A stretch of DNA of 32,000 bases from a virus (taxonomy: Duplodnaviria > Heunggongvirae > Uroviricota > Caudoviricetes), in IMG/VR virus record IMGVR_UViG_3300046542_000616; one strand, 5' to 3'. Positions 6,181-32,000 of this stretch are shown here, piece by piece (positions within the stretch are counted from its first letter, which is position 1; each line of letters starts with the position of its first letter). Both the position numbers and the translations under genes were made by a program. A model generated the notes under the pieces. It was not told the origin of the DNA. It made no database searches and saw nothing but the letters and a program-made list of their open reading frames with translations.

Positions 6181-6421
6181 AAGGTACATAAGCTATCAAC
6201 AACTAGATCAATCCGGTAAAGCCAGATCAGCCAATCGATTAAAACACGAATGAATGTCGAACAACATGGTGTGAAACGAACCAATCGCATGATCAATACA
6301 TGAATGAATGCCGAACAACCGACTGCATTTATAATGAAGAAAAAATCAGTGGTTTTTGTGGTGCGGGCTCAGTCTCCCGTGCCAAAATCAGTTATATGTA
6401 GTTTTTTGCAGAGGGCTCGTA

Positions 6422-8947
<2,526 letters not shown>

Positions 8948-12073: not shown

Positions 12074-13393
12074 TTAGATGGTCAGCCGCAGGTTCTTTTC
12101 AATCTGTTCGGCGAGGGATTTAGGCACCTCGTTGTTCTTGGCCAGCTTGCGCCAGGTCGACACGTGCTCGATGGTTTCATCAATGATTGCGTCGATCTTC
12201 TGTTTGGAGAAAATTTTGCTCTGGTTCATGAAGGTGTAGAAGTCAGCACGCTCAAAGTTCTCACGCTTGCCGTTGATGCTCATCCAGTGGCTGTTCACCC
12301 ACTTGCTACCAGGCTTGTAGCTGTAGGCCAAGTCGTAAGCCGGCGCGAGACGCCATTGGTGGTCATCGCCCATCAGGAAGGCAAAGTTCTTTGAGTGGTC
12401 ATCATGGTTTCGGGCCACGACGTTGAACACCATGCGCTTGAAGATCTGTTCAGCTTCCTTGATCGAGAGCTTAAGCTGTCTAGCGAGGCCCAGCAGCTCG
12501 GCGTACGAGTAAGAGCCTGGCTGCTTGTAGTCGACGTGCGCCATGCCGTTGAGGGTTTGCACATGAATCTTGTCATTACCCAAGCGATCAAAACGCTGGG
12601 TGATGAAGTGACGACGGTTGCCTTCGTTAAGCAGGCGGCAGGGCATCATGTCGAGACCGCATTTTTTTGCCATCAAAAAGTAAGCGTATTCCATGGCGCC
12701 GTAGCCCATGGGGTCACCAAAGGTTTCCTTGGTCGTGTTGTGCTCGCTGACCCCGTCGAACTTCATCAGATAGTGCGTGAAGCCTTTGGGCACCTTGGCC
12801 TGGCCCGAGCGCACTTGGGTGAAGTCGTCGTTGAAGGCCAGTACGGCCTTTGGCCGGGCACCCCCGGCGCTCATGCCCACCGTCAGCAAGGCCATCATGC
12901 CTTCGCGATCTGCATGACCGTTGCCGGCCAGCTCCACATTAAAATTTGCGCGATCATCCAGGATCTCCTGGGCGATGCTGACCAGCGATCTGATTTCAAT
13001 CGGCTGCGAAGCATTGAGGCTTCTGACTTGCGTGGCCGGGATGTACTCCAATGCGCCCATACCGCGCTTTCCGGTGTACTGCAGGCGCTGCAAGGGCGTG
13101 ATATCGCCAGGCAAACGGCCCTGGCTGGCCACCCAGGCGTTTAACACCGCATTACCGAAATCATCGGGCAGGGAATCGGCAATCAAGCCAGGAAGGCCCT
13201 TGAAGGTCGCTGTATCGATTTCAGGAAAGGTGTAAATCCGCTTGGACAGCGGCATTTTGATTGGCGAGAGCTCGATTCCAGTCTTGATGAACGCAGGGGT
13301 GTACTCAAAGGCCCCGAGGCCGGTGTCGGTATCAAAACTCACCGCACCCACGTCATGGCCGGCATAAGCGACCTTTACGACTTCCATTACCAT
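12074..13393 (-). CDS. hipA: HipA-family serine/threonine kinase toxin (type II TA)
   Basis: 439 aa. It shows GGARPKA (the P-loop-like motif of HipA), RNHDDHSKNFAF (catalytic D.H.KN) and LAPAYDL. It overlaps the upstream HTH gene by 7 nt. Confidence 0.92.
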   Translation of the reverse strand: MVMEVVKVAYAGHDVGAVSFDTDTGLGAFEYTPAFIKTGIELSPIKMPLSKRIYTFPEIDTATFKGLPGLIADSLPDDFGNAVLNAWVASQGRLPGDITPLQRLQYTGKRGMGALEYIPATQVRSLNASQPIEIRSLVSIAQEILDDRANFNVELAGNGHADREGMMALLTVGMSAGGARPKAVLAFNDDFTQVRSGQAKVPKGFTHYLMKFDGVSEHNTTKETFGDPMGYGAMEYAYFLMAKKCGLDMMPCRLLNEGNRRHFITQRFDRLGNDKIHVQTLNGMAHVDYKQPGSYSYAELLGLARQLKLSIKEAEQIFKRMVFNVVARNHDDHSKNFAFLMGDDHQWRLAPAYDLAYSYKPGSKWVNSHWMSINGKRENFERADFYTFMNQSKIFSKQKIDAIIDETIEHVSTWRKLAKNNEVPKSLAEQIEKNLRLTI

Positions 13394-13740
13394 GTGGGTT
13401 CATCCTTCTCGGGTTTAGCAGGGGCTGATCGGGTGGCCCTCTGGCGTTCTCTACTCTGCAATTTGAGCAACTGCAGGGGTGAAAGCTCCTGTTTGGGCAA
13501 GAACGTATTGAGTTGCTCCACCAAGTCAAGAGCCGTCAGGATGGCCGCCAGGGTATTGAGCTGGACACGACCTTTCTCCGCCGCAACCACGACCTTGCGA
13601 GTCACGCCAATACGTTCCGCCACCTCAGCTTGGGTGAGGCCGGCATTGAGCCTGGCCTGCTGAAGGCGTTGACCGATCTCTTCGGCGATGGCGTCTGGCG
13701 TTAAATCTTTGAACACGTTAATGACCCCTTTATGGGTCAC
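13387..13740 (-). CDS. hipB: HipB-like XRE-family HTH antitoxin/repressor
   Basis: The HTH segment is LTQAEVAERIGVTRKVVVAAEKG. There is no in-frame ATG: the start is GTG at 13740, or possibly GTG at 13716. It is translationally coupled to hipA, and palindromic operators lie upstream. Confidence 0.85.
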   Translation of the reverse strand: MTHKGVINVFKDLTPDAIAEEIGQRLQQARLNAGLTQAEVAERIGVTRKVVVAAEKGRVQLNTLAAILTALDLVEQLNTFLPKQELSPLQLLKLQSRERQRATRSAPAKPEKDEPTW

Positions 13741-17251: not shown

Positions 17252-18367
17252 TTAAAGCAGGCTGGCCTGATCAGGCACATCCTCTTGCGTGGCGGAATGG
17301 TCTTCCTGATCATAGTGGGCCACCGGATCCGCCTCGATATAGGTTCCCTTGAGCAGCTCAGACTTGATTTTAAGGGCTGCCGCACCTTTAAGCCCTGTCA
17401 CCATCCAGCGATGATCGCGATTGCGCACTATGGCCCATCCCGGCTCGATGTAGGTCTTGCTCTCATACTCCTGCAGCCGCTTGTTGAAATCAGACTTGAA
17501 CCTGCGCTCGACCGAATCGTAAGTCGACTTGCTGCCTGAAAGGCTGTGGTAGCTCTCCAGGAGCAGGTTAAACACTCCGTCCCGGTGCGAGGCAATGAAG
17601 GGCATCAATTTCTTGCCGTAGGAGTCCAGCGAATCCCATATCTCGAAGGGCACCAGAGTGGTGTTCACTCCATCAAACAGCAGAGCCATCATGTCGTCGA
17701 GCTCCACCATTAGCCGGCGCGACTGGCCCTGGGTCGCATTGCGATTGATAAAGCTCAGCGAGATCTCAAAGGGCTCCTTGTTGTTATAGCAATCCATGAT
17801 CATCGGCAGGTATTCGCTGTAGCGGTTGGTCACGCTCTGCTTGAGGAAGTTGCCATCGGGCAGCAACTCAAGGTCTTTGCGCGTGAGCACGTTGTACAGG
17901 CGGGCCAGCATGGACTTGCTCGCGATCTTGACGCTGCCGGCCTCCAGGTCTTCGAGCATGGTGCGGATGCGCGTGCGGTTGGGCCCCGAGTCCTTGATGT
18001 CCAGCCAGCCCAGCGCTTCGGTCATTAGGAAGGGCACTGGCTTGGTCAGCGAGCGACCTCGAGCCTTCACCAGGATGCGGGTAAACAGCGTCTCGTGGTC
18101 AACGGTCAGCTGCGGGCCCTTGTACTTGACGGTGCCGCCGAGGGAGAAGATGTCAGTCCATTCGTCATAGCGGCCCTTGGACTTGATCGCCGCAAAGAGC
18201 GCGCTGCGGACAATGGGATTGGCCTGCTCGTGAAACTCTTCGTTGGTCAGGGGGAGAACACCCTGGGCCGAGGCCAGGTCGAAGCCTTTGAGAAGCTTGG
18301 TGCGTCGATCACCAATCGTTTGAGTCAACTCTGTCGGATTCAAGATCTTGGTTTCTTGTACCGACAT
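17252..18367 (-). CDS. trfA: TrfA-family plasmid replication initiator
   Basis: - 371 aa with an AGGAG RBS.
- PIVRSALFAA...VKYKGPQLTVDHETLFTRIL...FLMTEALGWL parallels RK2 TrfA (from memory: DIARSALFTT...ITYTGVELRADDDELVWQQVL...FYELCQDLGW).
- ...ALLFDG...KLMPFIASHRD parallels VVLFAG...RMFDYFSSHRE.
- An iteron array lies adjacent. Confidence 0.85.
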   Translation of the reverse strand: MSVQETKILNPTELTQTIGDRRTKLLKGFDLASAQGVLPLTNEEFHEQANPIVRSALFAAIKSKGRYDEWTDIFSLGGTVKYKGPQLTVDHETLFTRILVKARGRSLTKPVPFLMTEALGWLDIKDSGPNRTRIRTMLEDLEAGSVKIASKSMLARLYNVLTRKDLELLPDGNFLKQSVTNRYSEYLPMIMDCYNNKEPFEISLSFINRNATQGQSRRLMVELDDMMALLFDGVNTTLVPFEIWDSLDSYGKKLMPFIASHRDGVFNLLLESYHSLSGSKSTYDSVERRFKSDFNKRLQEYESKTYIEPGWAIVRNRDHRWMVTGLKGAAALKIKSELLKGTYIEADPVAHYDQEDHSATQEDVPDQASLL

Positions 18368-18552: not shown

Positions 18553-18661
18553 CCAGGCACGCAGCAGGCCACAGGGAGGGAGACATAAGGAGAAGATCGT
18601 TCATTCGGCCTTTAGGCCGCCTACGGTTTTTCTTCGTATCGCTACAGGCCACGTAATACGT

Positions 18662-19612
18662 GGCGCTCATGGAATATCGGGACAGATTACGGGTGCCGTT
18701 CATCGCCGCCTCGCAGGCGCACAGAAAACATCGGCATCTCAAGGCCTGGGCCAGTCGTCAGAGATCCGTGGCACCCATCCATGAAAGCCTTTAAAACCGG
18801 GGCGCTCAGCAGATATCGGGACATCTATGCGACACCGGCGTCACGGGGTAAATGTGGACAGATACCCGACTTGGGCTGGAAAAGAGGCGCTAATAGGCGA
18901 ACAGCCCTACAAGCAAATGACAGTACAGGCTGAAGGCCACGGAATACGGGGCGCTCAGAGAATATCGGGACACTTATGTGACACATTGAATGGCGGTCAA
19001 ATGAGACGGATCGAGGAAGCACGATGGCTTGGTGGGGCCTTCCACCTGCAGGTGGACAGGCCACTGAGGGCCAAATGTGGACAGATACCGGCACTTTTCA
19101 GCCCAGGCGCACAGCAAACATCGGGATTTACCTGGAAGAAACGAAGGTGAGCAGTCTCCACGACCAGTTATTGAGGGCACCGGCACCTATCGGCTGACTC
19201 GACCAGGTCTTTAATCTGGACAGATTCCGGGTGTCCGGAGGGCCAAAGGCGTCTTTTTGGCCTGTGAGGGGCTTGATCCTGGCTGATAGCAGTCCGATGG
19301 ACGATGTGGTACATGGCCGGAGCCCTTATAAACCGTGGCGCTCAGCTAATATCGGGACAGATTTAGGCCATGACAGAGGGATGCAGGCTAGGGAGGTGAT
19401 TTACATGCTCGTCGGCCTGCCGTCCTGGTGAAAGGTCGCCAAATATGGACAGATTCCATGCCATGACCTGGCTTAAGGGCCAGATAAACTCAGGCGCACA
19501 GCAAATATCGTTCGATTTGAGGCCAAACGAATCCTTCGATCAGGATCCTGGCCGAGGCGCTGTCCATGCAAATGTGGACAGATACCAGACATGCTCAGCA
19601 ACCATCGGCCTT
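18662..19612 (+). repeat. direct iteron array of oriV (two related repeat classes sharing a GGACAGAT core)
   Basis: - Class B, GGCGC(T/A)CAG...A(T/C)ATCGG(GACA...): 18662-18690, 18716-18740, 18801-18829, 18950-18978, 19106-19131, 19337-19366, 19493-19518, 19591-19612.
- Class A, AAATGTGGACAGATACC: exact copies at 18850-18866, 19073-19089 and 19570-19586; variants at 19211-19228 and 19441-19457. Confidence 0.9.
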
Positions 19613-19729
19613 CGCTCATGAAACATCGTGTTTTTGCTGGGCAGAGGCCGGATCGAGAAGAAAAGCCTTATTAATCAGTGCAAAAAGCTGTTTTAGCAGG
19701 CGAGGGGAGGGTGGAAAAAATGACGGATT

Positions 19730-19836
19730 GATCATTATTTAACCAAAATATGGTGGCATTTAAAATTATTGAGAAGAAACAATCGGTTAAGTCACTTATA
19801 CCAATCCATCCACAGTGTATGCACAGCATATCCACA
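19730..19836. promoter_or_regulatory. AT-rich segment and DnaA-box-like sites of oriV
   Basis: - AT-rich tract around 19730-19790: ATCATTATTTAACCAAAATATGGTGGCATTTAAAATTATT.
- CCATCCACA at 19806-19814 (7/9 to TTATCCACA).
- ATATCCACA at 19828-19836 (8/9).
- A further ATATCCACG at 19972-19980. Confidence 0.7.
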
Positions 19837-19866
19837 GCTTTTATACAGTTTTTTCCACTGTTTTTT

Positions 19867-19923
19867 GATGTTTCTTGTGCGGTGACCGATGTTTGCTGAG
19901 CGGTGACGATGACTCCTGAGCAG
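19867..19923 (-). repeat. three reverse-orientation iteron-like repeats distal to the DnaA boxes
   Basis: Plus strand reads GATGTTTCTTGTGCGG (19867-19882), CCGATGTTTGCTGAGCGG (19886-19903, reverse complement CCGCTCAGCAAACATCGG) and GACGATGACTCCTGAGCAG (19906-19923). One more direct copy, GCGCTCAGCAAACATCGGCGGG, lies at 20193-20214. Confidence 0.75.
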
Positions 19924-20062
19924 ACTACGTTATCTGGTGTGCATCTGGCGATGTCTGCCGTGCAAATTTTGATATCCACGGAATCTGGTTCGATGCCTGC
20001 TGTGCAATGTATAACTTTCTAGCCAGGGCTAGCGCGACCTGCGGCCAATTTGGCGATCCTCC

Positions 20063-20162
20063 TAACCCCAAGGTAACCCCGTATCTCTAACCCGCCATCA
20101 CCAGGCTCTTGATCCCGTAGATAATAAAGCAAAGCTTTAACCCTTTTTTTGATGCTTAACCC
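20063..20162. repeat. five dispersed copies of TAACCC within 100 bp
   Basis: TAACCC at 20063-20068, 20074-20079 and 20088-20093; TTAACCC at 20137-20143 and 20156-20162, the last two each followed by a T-run. Confidence 0.6.
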
Positions 20163-20366
20163 TTTTGTCGCGCATCACGCACGCGAGGCAACGCGCTCAG
20201 CAAACATCGGCGGGTGGGAAGCCGGCAAAGCCTTAATTTTGAAGGCAAACCAACGGTTTTAAATTCTCTGCCAGGTCGAATTTGGTTTTAACCTGTGGCA
20301 CAATAAGGCACATATTGACAGTTTCCAGTCTTTCAACTGGACGTTTCATTCCCAAGGATTTGCACG

Positions 20367-22131: not shown

Positions 22132-22923
22132 CTAAGGGGAGGGCCCGTCGTTGATTTCGCACCTTGGTGCGGCAGGAACGGTCACCATCCCCTTGGCGTC
22201 GACCTGTAGCAACGTGACGACCTTGGCTGGATCCAGCGCGTCGTAGTAAAACTCATCACCATTGCTGGCCTTGTACACACGGGAAGCCAGCACCAGGGCG
22301 GTGGTGACGTGTTGCGGTGCAGCTTCGTATATCGCGGTGGTGACGGCGTGATCGAGTGTTAGTCGGAGCATGCGCTCAGTTGCATTACGCGCCTGATTGC
22401 CTTCCTCGTAATCCTTCAGTACCCGACGAGCCGTACTCTTGAGGCTTCGAGCATCGGCCTTGTAGGCATAGTCCATGGGGAATAGGTGATTCACCTCGGC
22501 GCTCATGGCCCTTATCAGTGAATAGCCCAATGCCGATGACGATGCCTTAACGCATTCGCCACGGAAACTCTCGCGGCGCTGTTGATTGATAGCAGGATTG
22601 AGCAGGTGCCCGAACTTCTCTTGCAAGTGGTCTTCGTAAAACCTCGCATTAAGAAGCGTGCCTTTGGCTACAAAAATCTCACCGCTTTCATCTGGATGGC
22701 CAGTGATGATGTCGGCTTCGTCGTAGCTGTAGTCGAGAACCACGTCCTTATCGTCGGTGCCTTCGATGTAGTACTGCAGGAAATCCAGGTCTGTGCCCAG
22801 GTAGAAACCGCCACGCCCGGTGTTCACCGAACCCAGGGTCAAGTCCACCGGCCAGCGCATCTGGAGCGTATGAGCCTGGAGGTTCTGCAGGTTGTAGGAA
22901 ACGATCCTGTGGCCGACTGGCAT
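22132..22923 (-). CDS. hypothetical protein, last gene of the large-paralog operon; lacks the LEDALGL tail
   Basis: 263 aa with a GAGG RBS. It starts 20 nt after the stop of the paralog at 22944-24044. Confidence 0.7.
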   Translation of the reverse strand: MPVGHRIVSYNLQNLQAHTLQMRWPVDLTLGSVNTGRGGFYLGTDLDFLQYYIEGTDDKDVVLDYSYDEADIITGHPDESGEIFVAKGTLLNARFYEDHLQEKFGHLLNPAINQQRRESFRGECVKASSSALGYSLIRAMSAEVNHLFPMDYAYKADARSLKSTARRVLKDYEEGNQARNATERMLRLTLDHAVTTAIYEAAPQHVTTALVLASRVYKASNGDEFYYDALDPAKVVTLLQVDAKGMVTVPAAPRCEINDGPSP

Positions 22924-22943: not shown

Positions 22944-24044
22944 TTAAAGGCCCAACGCGTCTTCGAGCATGTATGCCTTGCTCCATCGCAGGCCAAGCGC
23001 CGTCTCAACAGCGAACACCGTTTTGACGAAGGTGTTTTTATTAATGGGCGTCGTGTTTTTAAGCATCTCATCGATCTCGTTTCGATTGGCGCCCAGCTTT
23101 ATTTTTTCCGCGCAGTCATTCTCAGCACCAAGCTCGTCAAAAACCCACTTGAGCTTGATCCGCTCAGGCGGCTTCTGAGCTATCGTCTTGTCTGCGTCGA
23201 TGCCTTTAACCTCGGCTTTTGCGACAACCAGGCCAGACTGAACAATTTCGCAGTGCCAGAAGTCTGCCTTGTAAAATTCTGATTGGGTTGTGTGAGCGGT
23301 TGCTTTGGCAATCGCCTGAGACAGCGTAGGGGCAGCGGCAATAAGGAATCGAAATCCTTTTGTTAGGTTAGATGAAAATTCGATCCGATATTGGCCGGCA
23401 AAACAATCATCGCGTAGCCAAGTCTTTTGAGCCTCGCTGAAAAGCTCGGTTTTTCCGGCAATTACCCTGGACTCGTATGTTTCCTGAAGGCATTCAGGCA
23501 GTTCGATGTCCTTTCCGGTCAAGTCGATCAGCCAGCCTATGTCGAAACCTTCATAAGCGTGGAAGTATTGGTAGATGGCTTCTTGCTGATCAGGCGATGA
23601 TTCGTTGTACAGAATTGCAATATCGACCCACCTGACGTTTGCAGTCATTTTTGCTTGGAACATAAAGTAGCTGCATAGCTGATCCAAGCTGGATGGCTGA
23701 AATTTTCCATGAAGTTCTTCGAAGCGAGCGTCTTCTTTGGCGGCTATTTCTGCAAGCTCAATTTTTGTCACAAATGGAGCGTTATGGATCCTTGGTTTTA
23801 AGATTGAGAACAGTCGCTCAAAGGTTAGTTCTGACATCGATTTGAGTGGCGCAATTATCTCAGGATGAATGCTGCCAGGAAGGTCGAAGTGGTTCTCGCT
23901 CAGACGATCCAATGCATCGGCGTCGGGCACGACCTCTTCGCCAAACAAGGTGGTGAACCTTGCAGGGTTTCGATAAAACGCACTGTTGATGAATACATGG
24001 CTGTATGCGCTTGGAATTGGCAACATCTCTGGTTTATTTGACAT
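22944..24044 (-). CDS. large LEDALGL-tail family paralog 1
   Basis: The start was moved to ATG 24044 (MSNKPEMLPIPSAYSHVFIN...) by alignment with the paralog N-termini. It shares IAPL..MS..TF, LYN.S.DQQEAIYQYF, WLRDD, AAPTLSQAIAKATAH and KLKW, and ends ...WSKAYMLEDALGL-TAA. Confidence 0.8.
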   Translation of the reverse strand: MSNKPEMLPIPSAYSHVFINSAFYRNPARFTTLFGEEVVPDADALDRLSENHFDLPGSIHPEIIAPLKSMSELTFERLFSILKPRIHNAPFVTKIELAEIAAKEDARFEELHGKFQPSSLDQLCSYFMFQAKMTANVRWVDIAILYNESSPDQQEAIYQYFHAYEGFDIGWLIDLTGKDIELPECLQETYESRVIAGKTELFSEAQKTWLRDDCFAGQYRIEFSSNLTKGFRFLIAAAPTLSQAIAKATAHTTQSEFYKADFWHCEIVQSGLVVAKAEVKGIDADKTIAQKPPERIKLKWVFDELGAENDCAEKIKLGANRNEIDEMLKNTTPINKNTFVKTVFAVETALGLRWSKAYMLEDALGL

Positions 24045-24125
24045 AGTCACTACTTGGATTTGGATTACTTGCATTATCCGACAAGAACATCGATCCGGAC
24101 AAGAAAACCAGTGCATGGTTAAGGC

Positions 24126-25145
24126 TTAAAGGCCCAATTCGTCTTCAAGCCGGCTCACCTTCGACCACTGCATACCAAGTGCTTCTTCGGTGGCATACAG
24201 CGTCTTGAGGAACTCAGTCTTGGTGATGCCGCCCTGGTCGTTCTTTGGGCGAAGGTCAGCATGTCGCCAGGTAATTCTCGGGTCTTTGTCCTTCACGTGA
24301 GGGTGATTGCCGGAGGTGAACTTGACCTCACCCGTTGCAACAAACTGCCCTAGCTGGGCGAGACTGATGTGGGCAAGCGTGCCTTTGAAGTTGATGGCTC
24401 CCTGGATGGCACGAGCAATTGCAAGCTCCAGTGTCGGTGCTGTGCTGATCAACAAGTCGCGATGATAAGAGTCGACTCCATACACCTCGAATTGGTTAAT
24501 AACGAAATCCTCTCTGAGCCACCGGTCTTTGGCCACGTCGAAAGCCTGCTTCTCCCCATTTTCGATTCTGGTTTGCAAGGGCTTGTCGAAGGCGGGCGGG
24601 AGGTCGATAGCCGGCGCCTGGGTCGCTAGAAGGATGGCAAGGTCTCTGTTCTTTACGATACTAAAGTATTGGTACAAAGCCTCCTGCTGGTCGTCTGTGG
24701 ACGCGTTATAGAGATCTGCCAGTCGAGCCCATTCGACATAGCGGTTTACTCGGGCGGAGAGGAGCAGATAGCTCATGACCTGGTCTGTCGAAGCAGGATG
24801 GGATGCCTCAGTAATGTTGCCGTATTCCCTGCGCGCCATATCGGCGAGGTTGTCACGGCTGGTGATGATTTCATTTTGAAACTTAGGCTTGAGCACCGAG
24901 CAAAGCGCCTCAAACGTCTCGCCAGTCATGGCGGCCAGCGGAGCCATGATCGTGGTATCGATTTTGTGAGGGCCGTTTTGGTTTGAGTCATCGAAATCGA
25001 TGTCAGCCACCACATGCGGCCCGACCCTTTCTGAGTCCTTATGCTCATCTGGATGATGGCAGTCGAGGTTTTCGTAGAGCAGTCGAATGTACGGATAGGC
25101 TTCCACGCTGGGTGGCGTGATGTGGTTTGGGCTGGTCGATGACAT
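24126..25145 (-). CDS. large LEDALGL-tail family paralog 2
   Basis: 339 aa with an AGGAG RBS. It shows PPSVEAYPYIR, MAPLAAMTGETF, LYNASTDDQQEALYQYF, WLRED and TAPTLELAIARA, and ends ...QWSKVSRLEDELGL-TAA. Confidence 0.85.
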   Translation of the reverse strand: MSSTSPNHITPPSVEAYPYIRLLYENLDCHHPDEHKDSERVGPHVVADIDFDDSNQNGPHKIDTTIMAPLAAMTGETFEALCSVLKPKFQNEIITSRDNLADMARREYGNITEASHPASTDQVMSYLLLSARVNRYVEWARLADLYNASTDDQQEALYQYFSIVKNRDLAILLATQAPAIDLPPAFDKPLQTRIENGEKQAFDVAKDRWLREDFVINQFEVYGVDSYHRDLLISTAPTLELAIARAIQGAINFKGTLAHISLAQLGQFVATGEVKFTSGNHPHVKDKDPRITWRHADLRPKNDQGGITKTEFLKTLYATEEALGMQWSKVSRLEDELGL

Positions 25146-25220
25146 GGTGAAGCTCCTGGTGGTGCTTTGTTAAGTATCCGTGTTGCGCATACCGCTGGGC
25201 AACTTGCTACGGGGGATAGG

Positions 25221-26315
25221 TCACAGGCCCAGCGCATCTTCCAGGAGTTGCACCTTGCTCCACTGAACGCCCATGGCTTTCTCAACGGTGAAGAGTGTCT
25301 TGATGAAGTCGTCTTTTTTGAGCGGCGTGGTGAATCTCGACAGGGTCTCGATCTGCTGTTCTGTAAGGTTTTGTGTCCTGATTTTCTCAGCAATTTCCTC
25401 CTCACAGCCAAGTTGATCCACAAGCCACAGGGGTTTCACCGGACGTCTGGCAAAATCGATTAAATGGCTGTCATCACCTATGGACTGAAACCTGGCGCCG
25501 GCAATCCTTAGTCCGCCTTGCGTAATGTCGCAGAAACAGAAGTCAAGCGAGTATTCGGTTTCTTTGAGATGGGCAGTGGCTTTGGCCAATGCCTCGCATA
25601 ACGTCGGAGCAGTAGCGACAAGCGTTTTAAATGCGTCATTCACGATGTCTACGCGGTACTGTTGGATATAGGCATCATCGCGCAACCACCGCTGCAGCAC
25701 CTGGCTGTAGTGGTAGTCATTGCCGTTATGCACCCTTGTTTCCAATGGCTCGACGAGTGATTCTGGCAGGTCGAATTCCTTGGCCTTGTGCTCAAGTAAC
25801 CGCGCAAGCTCGAGCCCATGGTAATGATTGAAGTATTGCCAGATGGCTTGCTGCTGGCCTTTCGCAGATCGATTGTAAAAATCGACAAAATTGCCCCAAT
25901 GGATATTTTTCTTTGCGAGCGTTGCTTTCGCAATGGCGAACGACTCAAGCTGCGTTGGCGAATACGTTTCAAGGTGTGGATCAGACTTCAGGAGTTCTAC
26001 CAGGTCATTTTGCGAGAAGCGCTGTAGGCTCTCTCGATTCCTGATTTCATAGTCGTCGTATTTAAAGCTTAGGATTGAGGCCAGGGTAGCGAACGTTTCA
26101 TCGCTCATCGCTTCTAACGGGGCAATGCGGGTCAAGTCAATGTTGCCTGGCGAACCAAATCGGTTGTGCATGATATTGGAATGCAGGGTGCGATCTCCAG
26201 CCGCATCAAGGCCATCAGCAGTGGTAAAGCCAGTAGGATCACCACGGTAAATGATGTTGATGAAGGGATAATCCCTCAAGGCTGGCTTGATCAGCTCGGT
26301 TGGGCCTGCGATCAC
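25221..26315 (-). CDS. large LEDALGL-tail family paralog 3
   Basis: GTG start at 26315 with an AAGGAG RBS 7 nt upstream. It shows YPFINIIY, IAPLEAMSDETF, QQQAIWQYF, WLRDD and TAPTLCEALAKATAH, and ends ...QWSKVQLLEDALGL-TGA. Confidence 0.85.
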   Translation of the reverse strand: MIAGPTELIKPALRDYPFINIIYRGDPTGFTTADGLDAAGDRTLHSNIMHNRFGSPGNIDLTRIAPLEAMSDETFATLASILSFKYDDYEIRNRESLQRFSQNDLVELLKSDPHLETYSPTQLESFAIAKATLAKKNIHWGNFVDFYNRSAKGQQQAIWQYFNHYHGLELARLLEHKAKEFDLPESLVEPLETRVHNGNDYHYSQVLQRWLRDDAYIQQYRVDIVNDAFKTLVATAPTLCEALAKATAHLKETEYSLDFCFCDITQGGLRIAGARFQSIGDDSHLIDFARRPVKPLWLVDQLGCEEEIAEKIRTQNLTEQQIETLSRFTTPLKKDDFIKTLFTVEKAMGVQWSKVQLLEDALGL

Positions 26316-26358
26316 GAAAATGCTCCTTGTGAATTCTTATTGTGGGTATGAGCGTCCA

Positions 26359-27447
26359 TTAAATCCCCAGCGCCTCTTCCATGTGCCTCACCTTGTTCCA
26401 TTGCACGCCCAAGGCCTTCTCAACCGCGAACAGGGTCTTGATAAATTCGTTTTTTTTGAGCGGCGTGGTGTACTTAGTCACTGCCCCGATCTCCGCACCA
26501 GGCTCATACTGAACCCACAGTGGCTTGACTGGGCGAGATGCCCAGTCCAAAAGGCGGTCGTCGCTGGAATTGATTGACTCAAGCGTTGCCCAAGCGACTA
26601 TCCGACCGCCTTGGAGAATATCGCAGTAGTCGGTATCAATCGGATACTCATTGTCCTTCAGGTACGCTGTCGCTTTGGCAAGTATTTGAGCCAGGGTCGG
26701 CGCGGTCGCAATCAGTGTTCGGGTCACCGGGTTTACGATGTCAAAGCGGTACTGCTGCTGATACGCATCATCGCGCAACCACTTCTGAAGAACCTGGCTA
26801 TAGCGGTATTCATTACCTTTATGCGATCTCGACTCAAACGGCTCAATTAGACAATCGGGGATGGTGAGATCCTTGGCTTTGTGCGCGAGCAGAGATTCAA
26901 GCTCAAGACCGTGATATGTCTCGAAGTATTGGCGGATGGCTTGCTGCTGGTCATCGGCAGACTGGTTGTAGAGGCTAACCAGGTTGCCCCAGTGGACGCT
27001 TTTGGAAAACGTGGCCCTGGCCAAGAAGTAGGCCTCAAACTGGGCTCGAATGTAGGGCTCACGACCTTCGTCATTTGGCAGGTGGTAACTGCTGTTTTTG
27101 TATGTGAAATGCTCAAGGCTGCTGCGTTCACGTATGTCCGCGTCGTCACATTTGATGCCGAGGATTGAGGCCAGGGAAGCGAACGTTTCGTCGGTCATGG
27201 CACAATAAGGCGCCAATAGGGTATCAGTGATGTCCGCCGCAGAGCGGAATTGCGAGCTGTTGATCTTAGTTCGTCGCTCAGGATCACCTGCCATGCAGAC
27301 GTCCTCGTAGATGTCATCCTTTCCATCTTCTCCGGCCAGCACACAGTGAACCTTATCCGTAATGAACCGAGTGCGATCCCCTTGAAAGACGATGTTGATG
27401 AAGGGGTAGTTCTTCAAGTCAGGTGCGGTTAACTGGTGGGTGGTCAC
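26359..27447 (-). CDS. large LEDALGL-tail family paralog 4 (variant tail MEEALGI)
   Basis: The start was moved to GTG 27447 (VTTHQLTAPDLKNYPFINIVF...), which has an AAGGA RBS. This removes the overlap with paralog 5. It ends ...QWNKVRHMEEALGI-TAA. Confidence 0.8.
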   Translation of the reverse strand: MTTHQLTAPDLKNYPFINIVFQGDRTRFITDKVHCVLAGEDGKDDIYEDVCMAGDPERRTKINSSQFRSAADITDTLLAPYCAMTDETFASLASILGIKCDDADIRERSSLEHFTYKNSSYHLPNDEGREPYIRAQFEAYFLARATFSKSVHWGNLVSLYNQSADDQQQAIRQYFETYHGLELESLLAHKAKDLTIPDCLIEPFESRSHKGNEYRYSQVLQKWLRDDAYQQQYRFDIVNPVTRTLIATAPTLAQILAKATAYLKDNEYPIDTDYCDILQGGRIVAWATLESINSSDDRLLDWASRPVKPLWVQYEPGAEIGAVTKYTTPLKKNEFIKTLFAVEKALGVQWNKVRHMEEALGI

Positions 27448-27488
27448 GTCTGTGTTCCTTGTCTGTTCTTGTCGAAGGGGGCCAGGCA

Positions 27489-28640
27489 TCAAAGCCCAAG
27501 CGCATCTTCCAGCTTGGACACCCGGTTCCACTGAAGGCCCATGGTCTTCTCTACGAAGAACACTGCTTTGGTAAACTCCTTTTCCGAGACCTTTACCGTC
27601 TTGCTAAGTCGGAGATCGATTTCACTGACCTGCTGTTTAAGCTGACCGATGATCAGTGAATCCTTGGTGTTCTCGATTTCCTGCAGGAGCTTTTCGCCCT
27701 TAGCCCGCAAATTGCCTAGGTCTTCACCCAACTGCTCAAAATTCCACTTAAGCTTGTAGGGGGACATGATCATCTCGAACAAATCGGCATCATCAGGAAA
27801 GTCCTTCGCCATCTTGAACTCACCTTGAGCCAGGTATTTGCCTTGCTGACGCAGGACGATCAGGTCAGACACCATGGAGCCCGTGGCTTTTTCGACATAC
27901 GCGGTAGCCTTGGCAATGGCTTGGTTGAGCGTCGGAGCGGAGCCCAGCAGGAAGATCTCTTGTGTGCTGCGATGATAGGCGTCAACCCTGTATTGCTTGT
28001 GCAGGATGTCTTCACGAACCCATTGTTGCTGTAGATCACTGAATAAAAATTTCTCGCCATCAACGTCCTTGGATTGAAACGTCTCCTGGAGTTTCTCTGG
28101 AATGGTAATGGATACCGGTGGGGTGCTCATCAGCACACTCAGGTCACGGTTCATGCAGCGGAGGAAGTATTGATGAATCGCCTCCTGCTGGCCAGGCTCG
28201 GCGCCGTTGTAGAGCTCGGCAAGATGGCCCCAGTGAATGTCCTGGGTGGTCAGCGCTTTGGACAGGATGTATGTCTGAAGCTGATCGACGGTATACGACT
28301 CCTCATCATGGAATCGATTCAGGTTGCTGGCCGTAATTGTCTCAAGGGTCTGCCGGCTCACGATGTCTGATCCGAAGGCGCGAGGCTGCAGGATTTTCAT
28401 CAGGCGGGCGAAGGTTTCGTCTGACATCGCCTGGACGGCGGCCACGGCGGGATCGCTCACGTAGGAGGGTTCCTGAAAAAAGCTGACCTCGAATTCTTCG
28501 TCAGCCTTTGAATTAGGGGACTGATCTTGCTGTATCACGTTGTGCTTGAACGATACGTTGTGATGGAAATGCACGGCATTGATGAACGGATAGGCGTCCA
28601 GGCTAGGTACGGTAAGGCTGTCCGGTCTGCTCGTGGTCAT
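27489..28640 (-). CDS. large LEDALGL-tail family paralog 5
   Basis: The start was moved to ATG 28640 (MTTSRPDSLTVPSLDAYPFINAV...), which has an AGGA RBS. It ends ...QWNRVSKLEDALGL-TGA. It is the first gene of the minus-strand operon and is divergent from the small-family operon. Confidence 0.8.
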   Translation of the reverse strand: MTTSRPDSLTVPSLDAYPFINAVHFHHNVSFKHNVIQQDQSPNSKADEEFEVSFFQEPSYVSDPAVAAVQAMSDETFARLMKILQPRAFGSDIVSRQTLETITASNLNRFHDEESYTVDQLQTYILSKALTTQDIHWGHLAELYNGAEPGQQEAIHQYFLRCMNRDLSVLMSTPPVSITIPEKLQETFQSKDVDGEKFLFSDLQQQWVREDILHKQYRVDAYHRSTQEIFLLGSAPTLNQAIAKATAYVEKATGSMVSDLIVLRQQGKYLAQGEFKMAKDFPDDADLFEMIMSPYKLKWNFEQLGEDLGNLRAKGEKLLQEIENTKDSLIIGQLKQQVSEIDLRLSKTVKVSEKEFTKAVFFVEKTMGLQWNRVSKLEDALGL

Positions 28641-28765
28641 GTTTGCGATCCTGATCTGGTTTTCCTCATTATCGGCGCTGAGACTGCGCTCGAACAAGCA
28701 ATGATGCAGGGGTTTGATGCGACGGCTGCTCATAAGGGACAATACGTTATGGCCTGGAGTGACTC

Positions 28766-29203
28766 ATGGAATTGCAACAGAAGAAATACGGTTATAACTT
28801 GATTTTTTGCGAGCAGCGCAAAGACCAGACATACCATTGGAAAGATATTACGAATTTTGCGGCAGCCGACACCGCTGAGGAAGCTGTAGAAAATTTGTTG
28901 AAGCTCATGCGTGGATCGACGGAGCTAAAAGACATGTTTAAAACGAATGCAACTGTCTTATTAACCAAGTTTGAGTTAATCGGAAGCGGCAAAAAACTAC
29001 TTAGTTTCGAAACACGCAGGATGGGAACAGTCGTTGATAATTTGGCAAATATACTTATAAGCGGAAGTATGGTTGGAGATCCTTGGAAAAACATCGTCTT
29101 TGACTATGTGGATCGGGAACTTCTAAGTGCCTTGGTGAAGACATTCCCAGATCAAAAGCAGTTCTTTAAAGGCAAGGTTTTAGAAGGCTCCCTAGGTCTG
29201 TGA
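28766..29203 (+). CDS. small LEDALGL-tail family paralog S1 (tail LEGSLGL)
   Basis: 145 aa with a GGAG RBS. It shows FAAADTAEEAVENL and ...LLSALVKTFPDQKQFFKGKVLEGSLGL-TGA. Confidence 0.8.
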   Translation: MELQQKKYGYNLIFCEQRKDQTYHWKDITNFAAADTAEEAVENLLKLMRGSTELKDMFKTNATVLLTKFELIGSGKKLLSFETRRMGTVVDNLANILISGSMVGDPWKNIVFDYVDRELLSALVKTFPDQKQFFKGKVLEGSLGL

Positions 29204-29236
29204 TTGGGCGTGGAGATAAAAGTTAGGAGCATAGCA

Positions 29237-29662
29237 GTGGATTATGACAAAAAGAAATTCGGGTTCACAATTTGGTTCCACGACCGGAACAAGAATCTTA
29301 CGATCAACTGGTATGATTTTCCGGAATTTGCCTGTGCCGACACGGCGGGCGAGGCTATGGCTAATTTGGTCGATATTCTCGATGGATCTATTCCGTTGTG
29401 GCAGTTGCCGGACAAAGGAAGCAAGGCAGAATTGACCAGGATTGAGTTGCACGGTGATGGCAAGAGGCTGTTCAGGCTCAATGGTCTGAAAGAGGTCAAG
29501 AACCAGGCGCAACCTTGGCTTAAGACCATCGTTACTGTGCAGTGGAAATATACGGTATTCGATGACGTAAATCGCGAGCTCCTGGATGCTTTGGTGCAGA
29601 CGTTTCCGGAGCAGCAGCGGATTTTCAAGGGTAAATTTTTGGAAGATGCTCTGGGCCTCTGA
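29237..29662 (+). CDS. small LEDALGL-tail family paralog S2
   Basis: The start was moved to GTG 29237 (VDYDKKKFGFTIWF...), which has an AGGAG RBS 7 nt upstream, by alignment with S1 and S3. It ends ...FPEQQRIFKGKFLEDALGL-TGA. Confidence 0.8.
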   Translation: MDYDKKKFGFTIWFHDRNKNLTINWYDFPEFACADTAGEAMANLVDILDGSIPLWQLPDKGSKAELTRIELHGDGKRLFRLNGLKEVKNQAQPWLKTIVTVQWKYTVFDDVNRELLDALVQTFPEQQRIFKGKFLEDALGL

Positions 29663-29692
29663 CCTGGTGGATTTCTTCTGAGGAATAAAGCG

Positions 29693-30136
29693 ATGGAAAA
29701 CGCGAAAAACAATTTTGGTTATATATTGGCCTTTAATGAGCGACTGAGTGGCGTAGGAAACCTGATAAAACATCACTACGTCTATGATTTCGCCGCCGCA
29801 CAAACGGCTGAGGAAGCTGTCGACAACCTGGCGAAGGTGCTTGAAGGGTCGATTCCGTTTAAGCAGGATCTTGATAAGGGCCTCAGAGACAAAACCAAAC
29901 TTGTCAGCCTTGAGTTAATGGGCGATGGCAAGAAGCTGTTCAAATTGCATTCCATTGAAGGAACGGAGAGCTTGTTCGGTTTGCCCTGGTTCAAGAAGCC
30001 GAGCTTGAGTGTTCACTGGGGTTGGATGGAATTTGAGCGCGTGGATCGGAATCTGCTGGATGCCTTGGTGAAGACGTTTCCGGAGCAGAAGCAGATCTTT
30101 AAGGGGAAATTTCTGGAAGACGCCCTGGGCCTCTGA
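29693..30136 (+). CDS. small LEDALGL-tail family paralog S3
   Basis: 147 aa with a GAGGA RBS. It shows FAAAQTAEEAVDNL and ends ...FPEQKQIFKGKFLEDALGL-TGA. Confidence 0.85.
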   Translation: MENAKNNFGYILAFNERLSGVGNLIKHHYVYDFAAAQTAEEAVDNLAKVLEGSIPFKQDLDKGLRDKTKLVSLELMGDGKKLFKLHSIEGTESLFGLPWFKKPSLSVHWGWMEFERVDRNLLDALVKTFPEQKQIFKGKFLEDALGL

Positions 30137-30175
30137 TTCAATCTAAGTGCCGAAGCATTAAGGAATGCCAGAACG

Positions 30176-30562
30176 ATGAACCAAAGCCGATTTTCTTGCC
30201 GGCTGTATTTTAGCCGAGTGAGCATCACAGGCCGGCGAGACGTCTCCCTGATCCCTAATTACGTAGTCGGTACTTCCCTGGACGAAATTGTCAGCCAAGT
30301 GGCCAAGCTGTTTGATGGTTCCCGCCCGTTAGCAGGTGCAGGAAGCTCGGATGAGGCCCTATTCAGAGTGGTGATCGAAGAGATGGAGGATGAGTTGCTG
30401 ACTCTTTCGGTGTTCGACGATGGCGAGCACTGCCTGATCAACTGGGAGGATTCGACATTCCACGGAGTGGGCAAGGAGATGGTCAATGCACTGACAGCAG
30501 TCTTTCCAGATCATGTGGATCAATTCAAGCGCTTTGCACTGGAAGGGGCGCTCGGTCTCTGA
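30176..30562 (+). CDS. small LEDALGL-tail family paralog S4 (divergent; tail LEGALGL)
   Basis: 128 aa with an AAGGA RBS. It ends ...ALTAVFPDHVDQFKRFALEGALGL-TGA. The central W..(D/E)..F position is conserved with S1-S3. Confidence 0.75.
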   Translation: MNQSRFSCRLYFSRVSITGRRDVSLIPNYVVGTSLDEIVSQVAKLFDGSRPLAGAGSSDEALFRVVIEEMEDELLTLSVFDDGEHCLINWEDSTFHGVGKEMVNALTAVFPDHVDQFKRFALEGALGL

Positions 30563-30588
30563 AAGGGCCGGGAAGGCCTTGTAGTCGC

Positions 30589-31710
30589 CTACAGCCCCAA
30601 AGCATCCTCAAGGTCATGCACCTTAGACCATTGCAGGCCTAAAGCCTTCTCGACGCGATACACGGCCTCTCGGAAGTCTTTCAGGGGCACTGGGATCGGT
30701 TTGTCCAAAAGCGCCTCCAGCCTGGCGACGTTAGCCATGATTTTATCCTCTTCGCTCCTGAACGTATTGAGCGAGCGCATGGCGTCCTTCTTGATGCCTT
30801 GAACGTAGGAACGATCCGCACCCAATTGATCAAGGTTCCACTTGAGCTTGGTGATAATGCCTTTGCCGGCAATCACTTCAGCATGGGCCACGGGTTCGGC
30901 GAACTGAAGGATATCCAGGCGCCATTTGCCAGCCGCATATTCATCATCCTTGAGGCACAGCGAAGCCTTGGCGATGGCCTGGTCAAGCGTCGGCGCACCC
31001 CCAATAAGGTAGCGAGCATTGAGTGACGTGAGCACGATGTCGATGCGGTATTGCTGGTGAAACCGATCCTCTCGAAGCCATTTCTGCATCACCTCACTGA
31101 AGTGGTACGCATCACCGTTTTTGGCCTTGGTCTGGAATTCCTCCTGAACACATCCTGGCAAGGTGATGGCGGGGCCAGTGGTGCCCAACAGGTCTGGAAG
31201 ATCAATGTCGTGATGATTTAAGAAGTATTTCAGGATGGATTCTTGCTGATCGGGGTCTGACTCATTGTATAGGGACGCCACCTTTGCCCACTGCACGCTT
31301 TTGGACATGTCAGCATGGAACATCAGGTAAGTCTGAAGCTGCCCGGCTGTATAGGGCCCGCAATCATCTTCCTCGTTCACGACATAACTCGGCGTTTTTC
31401 GGAAGGCCAGTGCCTCAAGGTCAGCCTTTGTCCTGATTTCAGTGTCGTAGATTGATGGCTTGAGCAGGGTGAAAAGGCTATTGAAAGTGAAGTCGCTCAT
31501 CGCGAGGAGCGGCGCAATGTGATGATTGCGAACACTGGCGGGAAAATCGAAGTATTCACTGGCAACTTTATCGTACGAATCGACGTCAGGCGCCCTGGCC
31601 TCACCGGTAGCGTCGGTGAACCCAGCAAAGTCCCTGTGGAACATCACGTTGATGAACGGATAGTCGCTGAGGCTGGGCGGATTCAGGCGGGCAGGGCGCT
31701 TGGCGGTCAT
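30589..31710 (-). CDS. large LEDALGL-tail family paralog 6
   Basis: 373 aa with an AAGGA RBS. It shows PPSLSDYPFINVMF, IAPLLAMSDFTF, DQQESILKYF, WLREDRFHQQYR and GAPTLDQAIAKA, and ends ...QWSKVHDLEDALGL-TAG. Confidence 0.85.
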   Translation of the reverse strand: MTAKRPARLNPPSLSDYPFINVMFHRDFAGFTDATGEARAPDVDSYDKVASEYFDFPASVRNHHIAPLLAMSDFTFNSLFTLLKPSIYDTEIRTKADLEALAFRKTPSYVVNEEDDCGPYTAGQLQTYLMFHADMSKSVQWAKVASLYNESDPDQQESILKYFLNHHDIDLPDLLGTTGPAITLPGCVQEEFQTKAKNGDAYHFSEVMQKWLREDRFHQQYRIDIVLTSLNARYLIGGAPTLDQAIAKASLCLKDDEYAAGKWRLDILQFAEPVAHAEVIAGKGIITKLKWNLDQLGADRSYVQGIKKDAMRSLNTFRSEEDKIMANVARLEALLDKPIPVPLKDFREAVYRVEKALGLQWSKVHDLEDALGL

Positions 31711-31837
31711 TGAGTGTGTCCTTGTACTGGCATGTGTTCATTATCCAGACTGAGCCAGTGAGCGCACAAGAAAGCCAGCGAGCGCTTTTCCTTTTGAGGC
31801 CAAACAACCACGGCCTTCAAGTCGTTGTTTTTAAACG

Positions 31838-31876
31838 ATTATAGTCAATTATAGACCGATTATAGAGCGACTATAG
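31838..31876 (-). promoter_or_regulatory. four tandem copies of ATTATAG (gene-sense strand: CTATAAT/CTATAGT) at 10-11-bp spacing
   Basis: Plus-strand ATTATAG at 31838-31844, 31848-31854 and 31859-31865, and ACTATAG at 31870-31876. The array sits upstream of paralog 6 and overlaps the stop codon of paralog 7. On the sense strand each copy contains TATAAT (or TATAGT). Confidence 0.6.
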
Positions 31877-32000
31877 ACCAAGGGCATCTTCAAGGAGCAG
31901 GCCTTTGTGCCATTTCACACCAATCGCCTCCTCGGCAATAGCGATGGATTTCTCAAGGCGATCCTTGGTAAAGCCGAGTTTGAGATGATCGGTATCCCAG
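31871..32000 (-). CDS. large LEDALGL-tail family paralog 7 (C-terminal fragment; continues beyond the window)
   Basis: Hand translation of the minus strand gives ...IAIAEEAIGVKWHKGLLLEDALGL-TAG, with the stop at 31871-31873. The frame is open to nt 32000. Confidence 0.75.
   Translation of the reverse strand, partial: WDTDHLKLGFTKDRLEKSIAIAEEAIGVKWHKGLLLEDALGL

Follow-up and report, generated by a model that had tools for sequence, protein, structure and literature searches.

In this study, we analyzed a 32,000-nt stretch of DNA from the IMG/VR record IMGVR_UViG_3300046542_000616 (hereafter the window, i.e., the whole stretch at its full length), which carries at 22944-32000 an array of 11 open reading frames (ORFs) whose products all end in the same short C-terminal tail. 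We found that this tail is the local form of a lineage-wide …DLGL-COOH tag, which is present on approximately one gene in seven on 1-Mb Pseudomonas megaplasmids such as pMPPla107 and is most likely an address label for a plasmid-encoded reader.

A conserved tail closes all 11 proteins of the array

The tail, LE[DGE]xLG[LI] with L or M at its first position, closes 11 of 11 ORFs, and in every case the stop codon lies immediately behind it, in agreement with the original prediction made from this DNA. The array is composed of a large family of seven genes on the (−) strand (~340 to 390 aa) and a small family of four genes on the (+) strand (~130 to 150 aa). The most common form of the tail is LEDALGL, which occurs seven times rather than the six counted originally, as the tail of large-family gene 7 had not been listed; the single variants LEDELGL, MEEALGI, LEGSLGL, and LEGALGL occur once each, as reported. 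The aromatic residue and lysine said to precede the tail were also found: large-family members carry Trp(−13)/Lys(−11), small-family members Phe(−12)/Lys(−11).

Next to the bodies of these proteins, the tail is strikingly conserved. Specifically, the mean pairwise identity of the paralog bodies was 0.34 in the large family and 0.32 in the small family and reached 0.50 over residues −14 to −8, while the last seven residues showed 0.81 to 0.83 identity within families and 0.82 between the large and small families. Among the ten complete genes, the same tail residues are specified by different synonymous codons, and TAA, TGA, and TAG all occur as stops. Different codons were seen in ~162 of 257 identical-residue codon pairs, a figure that is approximate since the 11th gene was mis-framed in the pooled count. 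Because the codons are scrambled and all three stops are used, selection acts on the peptide and not on the DNA, which confirms the earlier proposal that the tail is conserved at the protein level (0.82 identity in the tail vs. ~0.33 in the bodies).

The first five large-family genes lie side by side. Gene 1 (22944..24044) encodes 366 aa from its likely start, with the ORF reaching 24116, and ends in MLEDALGL, the tail being coded at 22947-22967 and followed by TAA at 22944-22946. Genes 2 (24126..25145; 339 aa; RLEDELGL; TAA) and 3 (25221..26315; 364 aa; LLEDALGL; TGA) are followed by gene 4 (26359..27447; 362 aa, with the start taken from the homolog P0007; HMEEALGI; TAA) and gene 5 (27489..28640; 383 aa; KLEDALGL; TGA). 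The latter has a coiled-coil insert ahead of its C-terminal module and gives a weak BLASTP match to pMPPla107 642406-643572. The longest ORFs of genes 4 and 5 (26359-27531 and 27489-28742, respectively) overlap, and both start far ahead of the conserved N-terminus (P-S-L-x-x-Y-P-F-I); alignment with homologs indicates internal starts at 27447 and 28640. The four small-family genes occupy 28766..29203 (gene 1; 145 aa; VLEGSLGL), 29204..29662 (gene 2; 152 aa; FLEDALGL), 29693..30136 (gene 3; 147 aa; FLEDALGL), and 30176..30562 (gene 4; 128 aa, the most divergent; ALEGALGL), all with TGA stops. They are followed by large-family gene 6 (30589..31710; 373 aa; DLEDALGL; TAG) and by the 3′ end of large-family gene 7 (31871..32000; ...WHKGLLLEDALGL / ...AIGVKWHKGLLLEDALGL; TAG at 31871-31873), the body of which leaves the window and the last 32 residues of which are those of a gene at 3389-4444 of a related metagenomic locus (L001, see below). 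Neither family had a match in Pfam, PHROGs, NCBIfam, or PADLOC, and megablast of the region against phage and plasmid collections returned no match.

The tail is a replicon-wide code on pMPPla107

In pieces of the megaplasmids pBASL58 and pMPPla107, many ORFs of differing sizes end in DLGL. Greedy gene calling on all 971,889 bp of pMPPla107 yielded 1,147 predicted genes (92% coding), of which 142 end exactly in DLGL, compared with eight for the second-commonest C-terminal 4-mer, SPSP. The broader pattern [DEN][LIMF]G[LIMV] at the very end was found in 160 genes, corresponding to 14% of the genes and 22% of the coding residues, while 0.05 such genes would be expected by chance. DLGL is not enriched inside proteins (14 internal occurrences vs. 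12.6 expected). Thus, the tail is not confined to the two window families and instead represents a replicon-wide code of a megaplasmid lineage.

Analysis of a sequence logo of the 160 tails revealed R(−11) in 61%, D/E(−10) in 90%, a hydrophobic residue (−7) in 98%, G/A/S(−6) in 91%, D(−4) in 96%, L(−3) in 96%, G(−2) in 100%, and L(−1) in 95%, giving the consensus R(−11)-[DE](−10)-x-x-Φ(−7)-[GAS](−6)-x-D(−4)-L-G-L-COOH, where Φ is hydrophobic. The ending in the window, K(−11)-V-x-x-L(−7)-E-D-A(−4)-L-G-L-COOH, shares its register with this consensus. The 142 DLGL genes have 120 distinct 15-nt endings and use every synonymous codon and all three stops; given this diversity, we rejected the idea of a DNA-level element at the 3′ ends of genes.

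The 160 tail proteins range from 162 to 668 aa and are soluble and acidic, with a median isoelectric point of 5.5. A hydrophobic N-terminus was present in 4% of them vs. 20% of the other proteins (by a crude hydropathy test, not SignalP), and a transmembrane-like segment was present in 7% vs. 26% of the non-tail proteins. The tail genes tend to be neighbors, with 108 of the 160 adjoining another tail gene. None was found in the first 174 kb of pMPPla107 (1-174 kb), which contains the partition, replisome, type IVB secretion system (T4BSS), type IVb pilus, and SSB genes, and no backbone, replication, or type IV secretion system (T4SS) gene of this plasmid has the tail.

Next, we considered whether the carriers are related to one another. 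With the tails removed, the 160 proteins fell into 98 BLASTP clusters, and 95 of 96 cluster representatives had no Pfam domain; the one representative with a hit is a SIR2 protein ending in EFGL, which fits the tail pattern by chance. A hidden Markov model (HMM) of the large window family found 2 of the 160 tail proteins, and iteration added none. Comparison of the nine largest clusters and the two window families by hhalign merged only {cl0, cl1, cl4} and {cl3, cl8}, leaving at least seven groups unlinked. Descent from one superfamily is therefore unsupported beyond these small merges by iterative HMM search or hhalign on tail-free sequences. Because the de-tailed carriers stay in unlinked groups, the tail behaves as a module attached to bodies that are unrelated as far as profiles can tell. 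A recognition or docking peptide, as first suggested for the window, is the best reading of the tail, given that it recurs in one register on 160 proteins from at least seven groups unrelated by profile and that internal DLGL is not enriched.

A second ending also recurs on pMPPla107, where ~25 proteins terminate in DDSPSP, DSPEP, DDLEP, or DxEP; examples (loci L010-L029) are located at 324922-325800, 574694-575524, 666251-666790, and 714404-714781. The window gene at 22132..22923 on the (−) strand, adjacent to the array, encodes a 263-aa protein that is 45% identical to pMPPla107 831249-832160. It had been described as tail-less, which holds as far as the LGL tail is concerned; it nevertheless carries an ending (...INDGPSP) that fits this second motif (DDSPSP/DxEP). 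Hayes, Bose, and Sauer reportedly observed in 2002 that a C-terminal proline before the stop codon slows termination and provokes ssrA tagging.

pMPPla107 also has its own tmRNA, with the tag ANNDNFDAPVALAA, encoded beside SmpB at 837885-838265 and neighboring positions (37885-38265 of locus L026). In addition, it carries EF-Tu, Trp- and Ser-tRNA ligases, two peptidyl-tRNA-hydrolase-like genes, sigma factors, and a full replisome set, and pBASL58 encodes SspB. A link between the tail and the plasmid tmRNA tag was rejected, as the tag (ANNDNFDAPVALAA) has a canonical ALAA ending.

Relatives keep the tail at the extreme C-terminus

Searches for relatives returned 98 proteins in total: a search of 5.8 billion proteins contributed nine, and the remainder came from profile matching against 1.84 billion cluster representatives, which was exhaustive and gave 90 matches. 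A word-indexed search with a 26-sequence alignment returned one further protein only, and a scan of 185,579 species genomes in GTDB with two family patterns found no relative. Such relatives are very rare. The original prediction held that the tail must be terminal and would be contradicted by homologs that lack or extend it. We found that ~85 of the 98 relatives finish in [LF][ESG]x[DAE]LG[LMIV] with no residue after it, including the most distant matches (E-values of 1e-4 to 1e-19), and the prediction therefore stands. Distant members found by profile only end in ...FSQDLGL, ...LERDLGL, and ...LEDDLNL, and the exceptions comprise three apparent fragments and the variants DDGFSL, DDSFSL, EDGLSL, DDGMSP, and EFSP.

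Several of these relatives are themselves arranged in arrays. A near-identical locus (L001) on a 1.28-Mb metagenomic contig (JGI 3300046512, Ga0495610_0000002) has 13 tailed genes, two further loci (L002/L003) have 10 tailed genes with the variant LE[DSE]DLG[ML], and another (L005) has four. Inside the large-family array of L001 lies a gene for a PapB-like regulator (2401-2682; ~92 aa), and at the edge of the L002 array lies a 91-aa gene of similar size with no recorded Pfam match (3076-3351). The regulator, which is outside the window, may control the arrays.

The tail varies between megaplasmid lineages

Judging from its sequence, the replicon of the window is a ~1-Mb Pseudomonas megaplasmid of the pMPPla107/pBASL58/pPL1 kind. 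The assignment to this type is based on its TrfA-like initiator and on the synteny of a gene pair encoding an AAA+ ATPase and a VWA protein. Specifically, the best match of the TrfA-like initiator (17252-18367) is in pBASL58 (48.6% identity), followed by IncP-2-type P. aeruginosa megaplasmids, and a four-gene block at 3327-8947 that includes the AAA+/VWA pair is syntenic with 165.5-173.1 kb of pMPPla107. Large-family relatives among 72,556 plasmids were found only on pPL1, pBASL58, and pMPPla107, i.e., on ~1-Mb Pseudomonas megaplasmids.

Comparison of these replicons revealed lineage-specific forms of the ending. It is xDLGL in pMPPla107 and pBASL58, [ED][DGE][AES]LG[LI] in the lineage of the window, LE[DSE]DLG[ML] in the L002 lineage, and DDGLAF or DDGLSL in pPL1. 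P0082 ends in QDLGL, and a further pPL1 gene with 64% identity to it most likely ends in the same way. The FeN3W plasmid, which is related through its DotA, shows [KR]R..ΦS.D[LF]x[LI], and a Vibrio plasmid of ~0.9 Mb shows only faint traces. The conjugative-type Pseudomonas megaplasmid lineage of ~1 Mb possibly has relatives in Vibrio, and the tail code may or may not reach beyond Pseudomonas. A 50-kb sample of the Vibrio vulnificus plasmid NZ_CP015514.1 (500-550 kb; L031) contains the faint endings AGLGM, GDLSL, and SELSM, and the ~0.9-Mb Vibrio megaplasmids encode a DotA 33% identical to that of pMPPla107.

The motif is thus uniform inside each plasmid and drifts across plasmid lineages. Because of this pattern, we infer that the receptor is plasmid-encoded and co-evolves with the tail, rather than being a conserved host protein; if DnaN, SSB, ClpX, or another conserved hub of the host were the reader, there would be no need for the motif to drift. 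Taken together, it is quite probable that the tail represents a modular recognition signal at the free C-terminus of many otherwise unrelated, soluble, plasmid-specific proteins, which is read along with the terminal carboxylate by a plasmid-encoded receptor. A receptor of this origin would account both for uniformity within a plasmid and for drift between lineages.

Predicted structures of the two window families

AlphaFold2 models were obtained for one member of each family. The model of large-family gene 3 (25221-26315; pLDDT 88, pTM 0.86) ends in a helix (residues 334-347), a turn, a second helix (352-361), and a terminal LGL coil. The model of small-family gene 3 (29693-30136; pLDDT 81) consists of a beta-hairpin, a helix, a beta-hairpin, a strand, two helices, and an LGL coil. 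In both models, a confident helix extends up to position −4 and is followed by the L-G-L coil. Foldseek searches with both models against the PDB, and with that of the large family against BFVD as well, gave nothing under an E-value of 0.05, i.e., no likeness to solved folds.

The order of secondary-structure elements in the small-family model is that of the C-terminal half of the large-family model, and hhalign gave a weak alignment between the FAxAxTAEEAV..LAK and IATAPTL..ALAKA segments. Because of this shared order and the weak profile match, the tail on the two window families probably does not represent two independent cases. We also weighed the possibility that the C-terminal ~20 residues of large-family proteins form a helix-turn-helix (HTH) DNA-binding motif (Cro/Xre-like, VEKALGVQWSKV..LE). 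This reading was dropped because the tail is retained in the small family and in those of pMPPla107, none of which has the LGV turn, and because no HTH model matches.

A candidate reader: the plasmid-encoded type IVB secretion system

Of the partners listed in the original prediction, a T4SS, for which the tail would serve as a translocation signal, is the one best backed by genomic context. We tentatively propose that the receptor may be the DotL-DotM coupling complex of the plasmids' own Dot/Icm-like T4BSS. Legionella DotM recognizes acidic C-terminal signals through its cytoplasmic domain. On the megaplasmids, the DotL-type coupling protein and DotM would bind the tail, and the tailed proteins, including the 11 in the window, would be delivered as substrates into recipient or target cells upon mating or contact, forming an arsenal of Legionella scale on a conjugative plasmid.

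Several observations are consistent with this proposal. The T4BSS genes of pMPPla107 encode DotA, DotD, DotG, DotH, DotI, a DotL-like type IV coupling protein (959870-962416), and a protein with a DotM_C domain (963007-964374; E-value of 2e-34). pBASL58 is typed as MPF_I, and DotA was detected in pPL1 (39% identity) and in the FeN3W plasmid (37%). The 160 tails fit the acidic/hydrophobic profile of Dot/Icm signals, with D/E(−10) in 90%, D(−4) in 96%, and hydrophobic residues at −7, −3, and −1 (PMC9302130). By the crude hydropathy test, tail proteins lack a Sec-like N-terminus, as do Dot/Icm substrates, which are cytoplasmic before export. By analogy, hundreds of Sec-less ORFans in paralog arrays may be viewed as a Legionella-like repertoire. 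More speculatively, a strict plasmid-specific code, RDxxΦGxDLGL-COOH with its variants, perhaps with DDSPSP/DxEP as a second code, could route ~160 to 185 ORFans, which take up a fifth of what the plasmid encodes, through the T4BSS into recipient or prey cells. Alternatively, the tail code may feed a wholly undescribed sorting machine encoded on the plasmid.

A number of points weigh against the proposed recognition of the tail by a T4BSS. The link between tail and partner is a prediction. Dot/Icm signals are degenerate and follow no strict consensus, and a near-invariant tetrapeptide has no precedent among T4BSSs. Because the T4BSS shares the backbone with all other conserved plasmid genes, co-occurrence cannot single it out. 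In the metagenome, a scan with a DotA profile returned seven contigs, and the contig of the window's replicon was not among them. PLSDB types these plasmids as non-mobilizable, with MPF_I called for two, and 160 injected proteins would be a very large number for a conjugation system. As for the tail itself, in both AlphaFold2 models it is positioned directly on a confident helix, without a flexible linker, and therefore could be partly buried; one helix earlier, the large-family proteins have a similar cap, VEKALGV. Finally, profile methods can miss a very old common ancestry of the carrier families.

Alternative explanations of the tail

Three other explanations fit part of these data, each of them unlikely. 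The first assigns the tail to a different plasmid-encoded machine, the pair formed by a MoxR-type AAA+ ATPase of the AAA_5 family (4500-5750, (+) strand) and a DUF2201_N metallopeptidase/VWA protein (6356-8947, (+) strand; 863 aa), with the invariant aspartate and the terminal carboxylate of the tail ligating the MIDAS metal of the VWA domain and the client being remodeled, assembled, or cleaved. VWA/MIDAS domains bind an acidic ligand residue in integrin I-domains, CbbQO-type activases, and MoxR-VWA systems. The window and pMPPla107 share this conserved pair in synteny (37% and 43% identity); in the latter, the first tail-gene array begins at 174362, 1.2 kb from the pair (170289-173108), and on the FeN3W plasmid a VWA-like gene is located less than 4 kb from an array of tail-like genes (600-622 kb). 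Yet this adjacency may reflect plain backbone synteny, the pair is 14 kb from the array in the window, the majority of tail genes are hundreds of kb distant, and ~160 clients would be without known precedent. We regard docking on this pair as improbable.

A degron, or a tether for a protease adaptor comparable to ssrA-LAA/ClpX or the SspB peptide, would make the plasmid proteins short-lived or place them under regulated proteolysis. Non-polar C-termini are classic signals for ClpXP, FtsH, and Tsp, and a non-polar ending that needs a free terminus has the same format as ...ALAA; moreover, SspB is encoded on pBASL58, and both tmRNA and SmpB on pMPPla107. Four observations nonetheless make this function doubtful. 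The tails end in LGL and not like the plasmid's own tmRNA tag (...PVALAA, the canonical ALAA form), and the conserved R/K(−11), D/E(−10), and D(−4) are absent from known degrons. Host ClpX is highly conserved across Pseudomonas and would leave the lineage-specific drift unexplained, and devoting 22% of the coding capacity to constitutively unstable proteins is hard to rationalize.

Equally, the tail may have no partner and serve as a structural C-cap and hydrophobic staple on a C-terminal helical hairpin, inherited within one ancient, hyper-diverged superfamily. A glycine at C′ followed by a hydrophobic residue is a classic helix-capping motif, both AlphaFold2 models finish in helix-turn-helix-LGL with good confidence, and VEKALGV, at the end of an earlier helix of the large family, resembles LEDALGL. 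It also suits this explanation that the two window families appear to share a domain and that some pMPPla107 clusters merge by profile. A cap, however, has no need to be chain-terminal in >95% of ~250 proteins and should not stand out as the most strongly conserved stretch, well ahead of the core residues. Furthermore, at least seven groups of proteins of 160 to 670 aa remain unlinked without their tails, and plasmid-wide change in step (DLGL, ALGL, DLGM, DLxL) would not be expected of a cap. A purely structural role is accordingly given little probability.

A type I secretion system (T1SS) signal of the kind used by ABC transporter-exported proteases and lipases, which is acidic and then hydrophobic at the extreme C-terminus and cannot be extended, is very unlikely. 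AprA-type proteases end in Asp and three hydrophobic residues, and one added residue impairs their secretion (PMC2642768). The D-L-G-L-COOH format fits an acidic-then-hydrophobic terminus (PMC2642768), and the tail proteins are acidic and without Sec signals. Glycine at −2, however, is not hydrophobic. GGxGxD repeats occurred at least twice in 0 of 160 pMPPla107 tail proteins and at all in 0 of 42 window-family sequences, and the product names of pMPPla107 reveal no operon for an ABC transporter, membrane fusion protein, and outer membrane factor, the one HlyD-family gene adjoining a major facilitator superfamily pump.

The host-hub precedents named in the original prediction fit poorly, and mimicry of a host-hub ligand or a nascent-chain signal read by the ribosome at termination is the least credible explanation of all: for the beta-clamp motif of Pol IV (...QLVLGL-COOH), the last four residues do resemble VLGL, but the required Gln(−6)/Leu(−5) is replaced by E/D in the window and by G/A/S (91%) and a variable residue in pMPPla107; the SSB tip DDDIPF is unmatched, as there is no Pro-Phe and only single acidic residues stand at −4 or −5/−6; ~160 ORFan proteins competing for the clamp are implausible; and host hubs are conserved whereas the tail drifts. 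The plasmids' own dnaE, dnaQ, dnaB, dnaG, and ssb genes, their tmRNA/SmpB, and the proline at the end of the second tail class would suit a hub or termination role, given that a C-terminal proline disturbs termination; for Leu-Gly-Leu-stop, no such effect is known, and all three stops are used. The class II PDZ pattern Φ-x-Φ-COOH also fits L-G-L. The product names of pMPPla107 show no PDZ protein. PDZ proteases known from bacteria act in the periplasm, while the tail proteins have no export signals by hydropathy.

Other features of the window

The gene content on the flanks of the array is plasmid-like. Beside the trfA-like gene, iteron-like direct repeats extend over 18641-20213 (GGCGCTCAG..ATATCGGGACA, 4 to 8 copies; AATGTGGACAGATACC, 6 copies) and likely represent the vegetative origin. 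A HipA-family kinase toxin gene with HipA_C and Couple_hipA domains is located at 12074-13393 on the (−) strand, with a small ORF (13387-13740) that begins just upstream and overlaps its start, and an antitoxin-like gene with a SocA/Panacea domain is found at 1848-2519 on the (+) strand; the HipA and SocA genes are ordinary plasmid stability modules. Within the DUF2201_N/VWA gene (6356-8947), a low-complexity, acidic, Pro/Gly/Gln-rich insert of ~300 aa at ~7250-8150 (PGEGQPGEGEPGEG..., then a GQGQGQ run) separates the metallopeptidase and VWA domains, and the AT-skew spike at 7-8 kb is due to this insert.

Implications of a probable plasmid-wide address label

If the tail is an address label, a one-line rule would list the client set of a plasmid machine, comprising ~160 proteins on pMPPla107 and 11 here, and a first functional handle would become available for one-fifth of the "dark" coding capacity in the largest Pseudomonas plasmids known. 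Should the T4BSS prove to be the reader, type IVB systems would have their first strict consensus signal, and protein delivery could be engineered with a portable tag. Conjugative megaplasmids could then inject effector repertoires sized like those of intracellular pathogens, which would bear on the establishment of giant plasmids in new hosts and on their known fitness costs. pMPPla107 is transmissible and in use for laboratory evolution and transfer experiments (PMC6482414, PMC8544880).

Comparison with known systems

Literature searches that combined DLGL with plasmid or megaplasmid, or T4BSS with megaplasmid effectors, returned no description of the tail, and the comparative paper on pMPPla107 and pBASL58 reports no C-terminal feature and no effectors, using "motif" only for DNA repeats near the origin. 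Sorting and docking peptides at the C-terminus are familiar as such; what the literature searched does not describe is a near-invariant tetrapeptide that ends 14% of all genes on a 1-Mb plasmid and has dialects between lineages.

The Dot/Icm systems of Legionella and Coxiella, in which DotL-DotM-IcmSW-LvgA act as readers, resemble the megaplasmid tail in several respects. Their signals reportedly have a hydrophobic residue at −3, as described by Nagai in 2005. These signals are uncleaved, lie in the last 20 to 30 residues, and are acidic and hydrophobic (PMC9302130). Similarly, they mark hundreds of unrelated, Sec-less, mostly ORFan proteins that take up ~10% of the coding capacity, and in pMPPla107 the tailed proteins share their replicon with the genes for the machinery, DotM among them. 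In contrast to the Legionella signals, which have no strict consensus, the four terminal residues are 95% to 100% invariant here, with the register fixed to the carboxylate. Moreover, the carrier is a conjugative-type megaplasmid instead of a pathogen chromosome, and translocation is, in our case, a prediction.

T1SS substrates, such as the AprA/PrtG-type proteases and the TliA lipase, share the acidic-then-hydrophobic last four to five residues, where an extension by one residue is not tolerated (PMC2642768). The proteins described here differ from them in having no RTX/GGxGxD repeats, no annotated operon, and a glycine at −2, and in being more numerous and diverse.

Short terminal docking peptides provide a further parallel. 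They include NWETF-COOH of chemoreceptors (bound by CheR/CheB), EEVD-COOH of Hsp70/90 (bound by TPR clamps), the peroxisomal signal SKL-COOH (PTS1), and the ClpX-binding peptide of SspB. Like the tail, such peptides are short, must be terminal, can be present on many proteins of one genome, and are read by one receptor that also contacts the carboxylate. The sequence is different, the receptor of the tail is putative, and the scale of 14% of genes and the specificity for a plasmid lineage have no counterpart among them. The beta-clamp motif (QLxLxL or QL[SD]LF, as in Pol IV) has ...LGL-COOH and a small or hydrophobic residue at −4 in common with the tail, but the defining Gln(−6)-Leu(−5) is absent here: the window has E-D at these positions, and pMPPla107 has [GAS]-x.

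Lastly, XVIPCD, found in T4SS toxins of Xanthomonadales, and BID, found in Bartonella effectors, are precedents for a conserved, lineage-specific C-terminal module that marks the substrates of a T4SS. Those modules are folded domains of ~100 to 140 residues that are recognized by VirD4, whereas the corresponding module on the megaplasmids consists of ~11 conserved residues.

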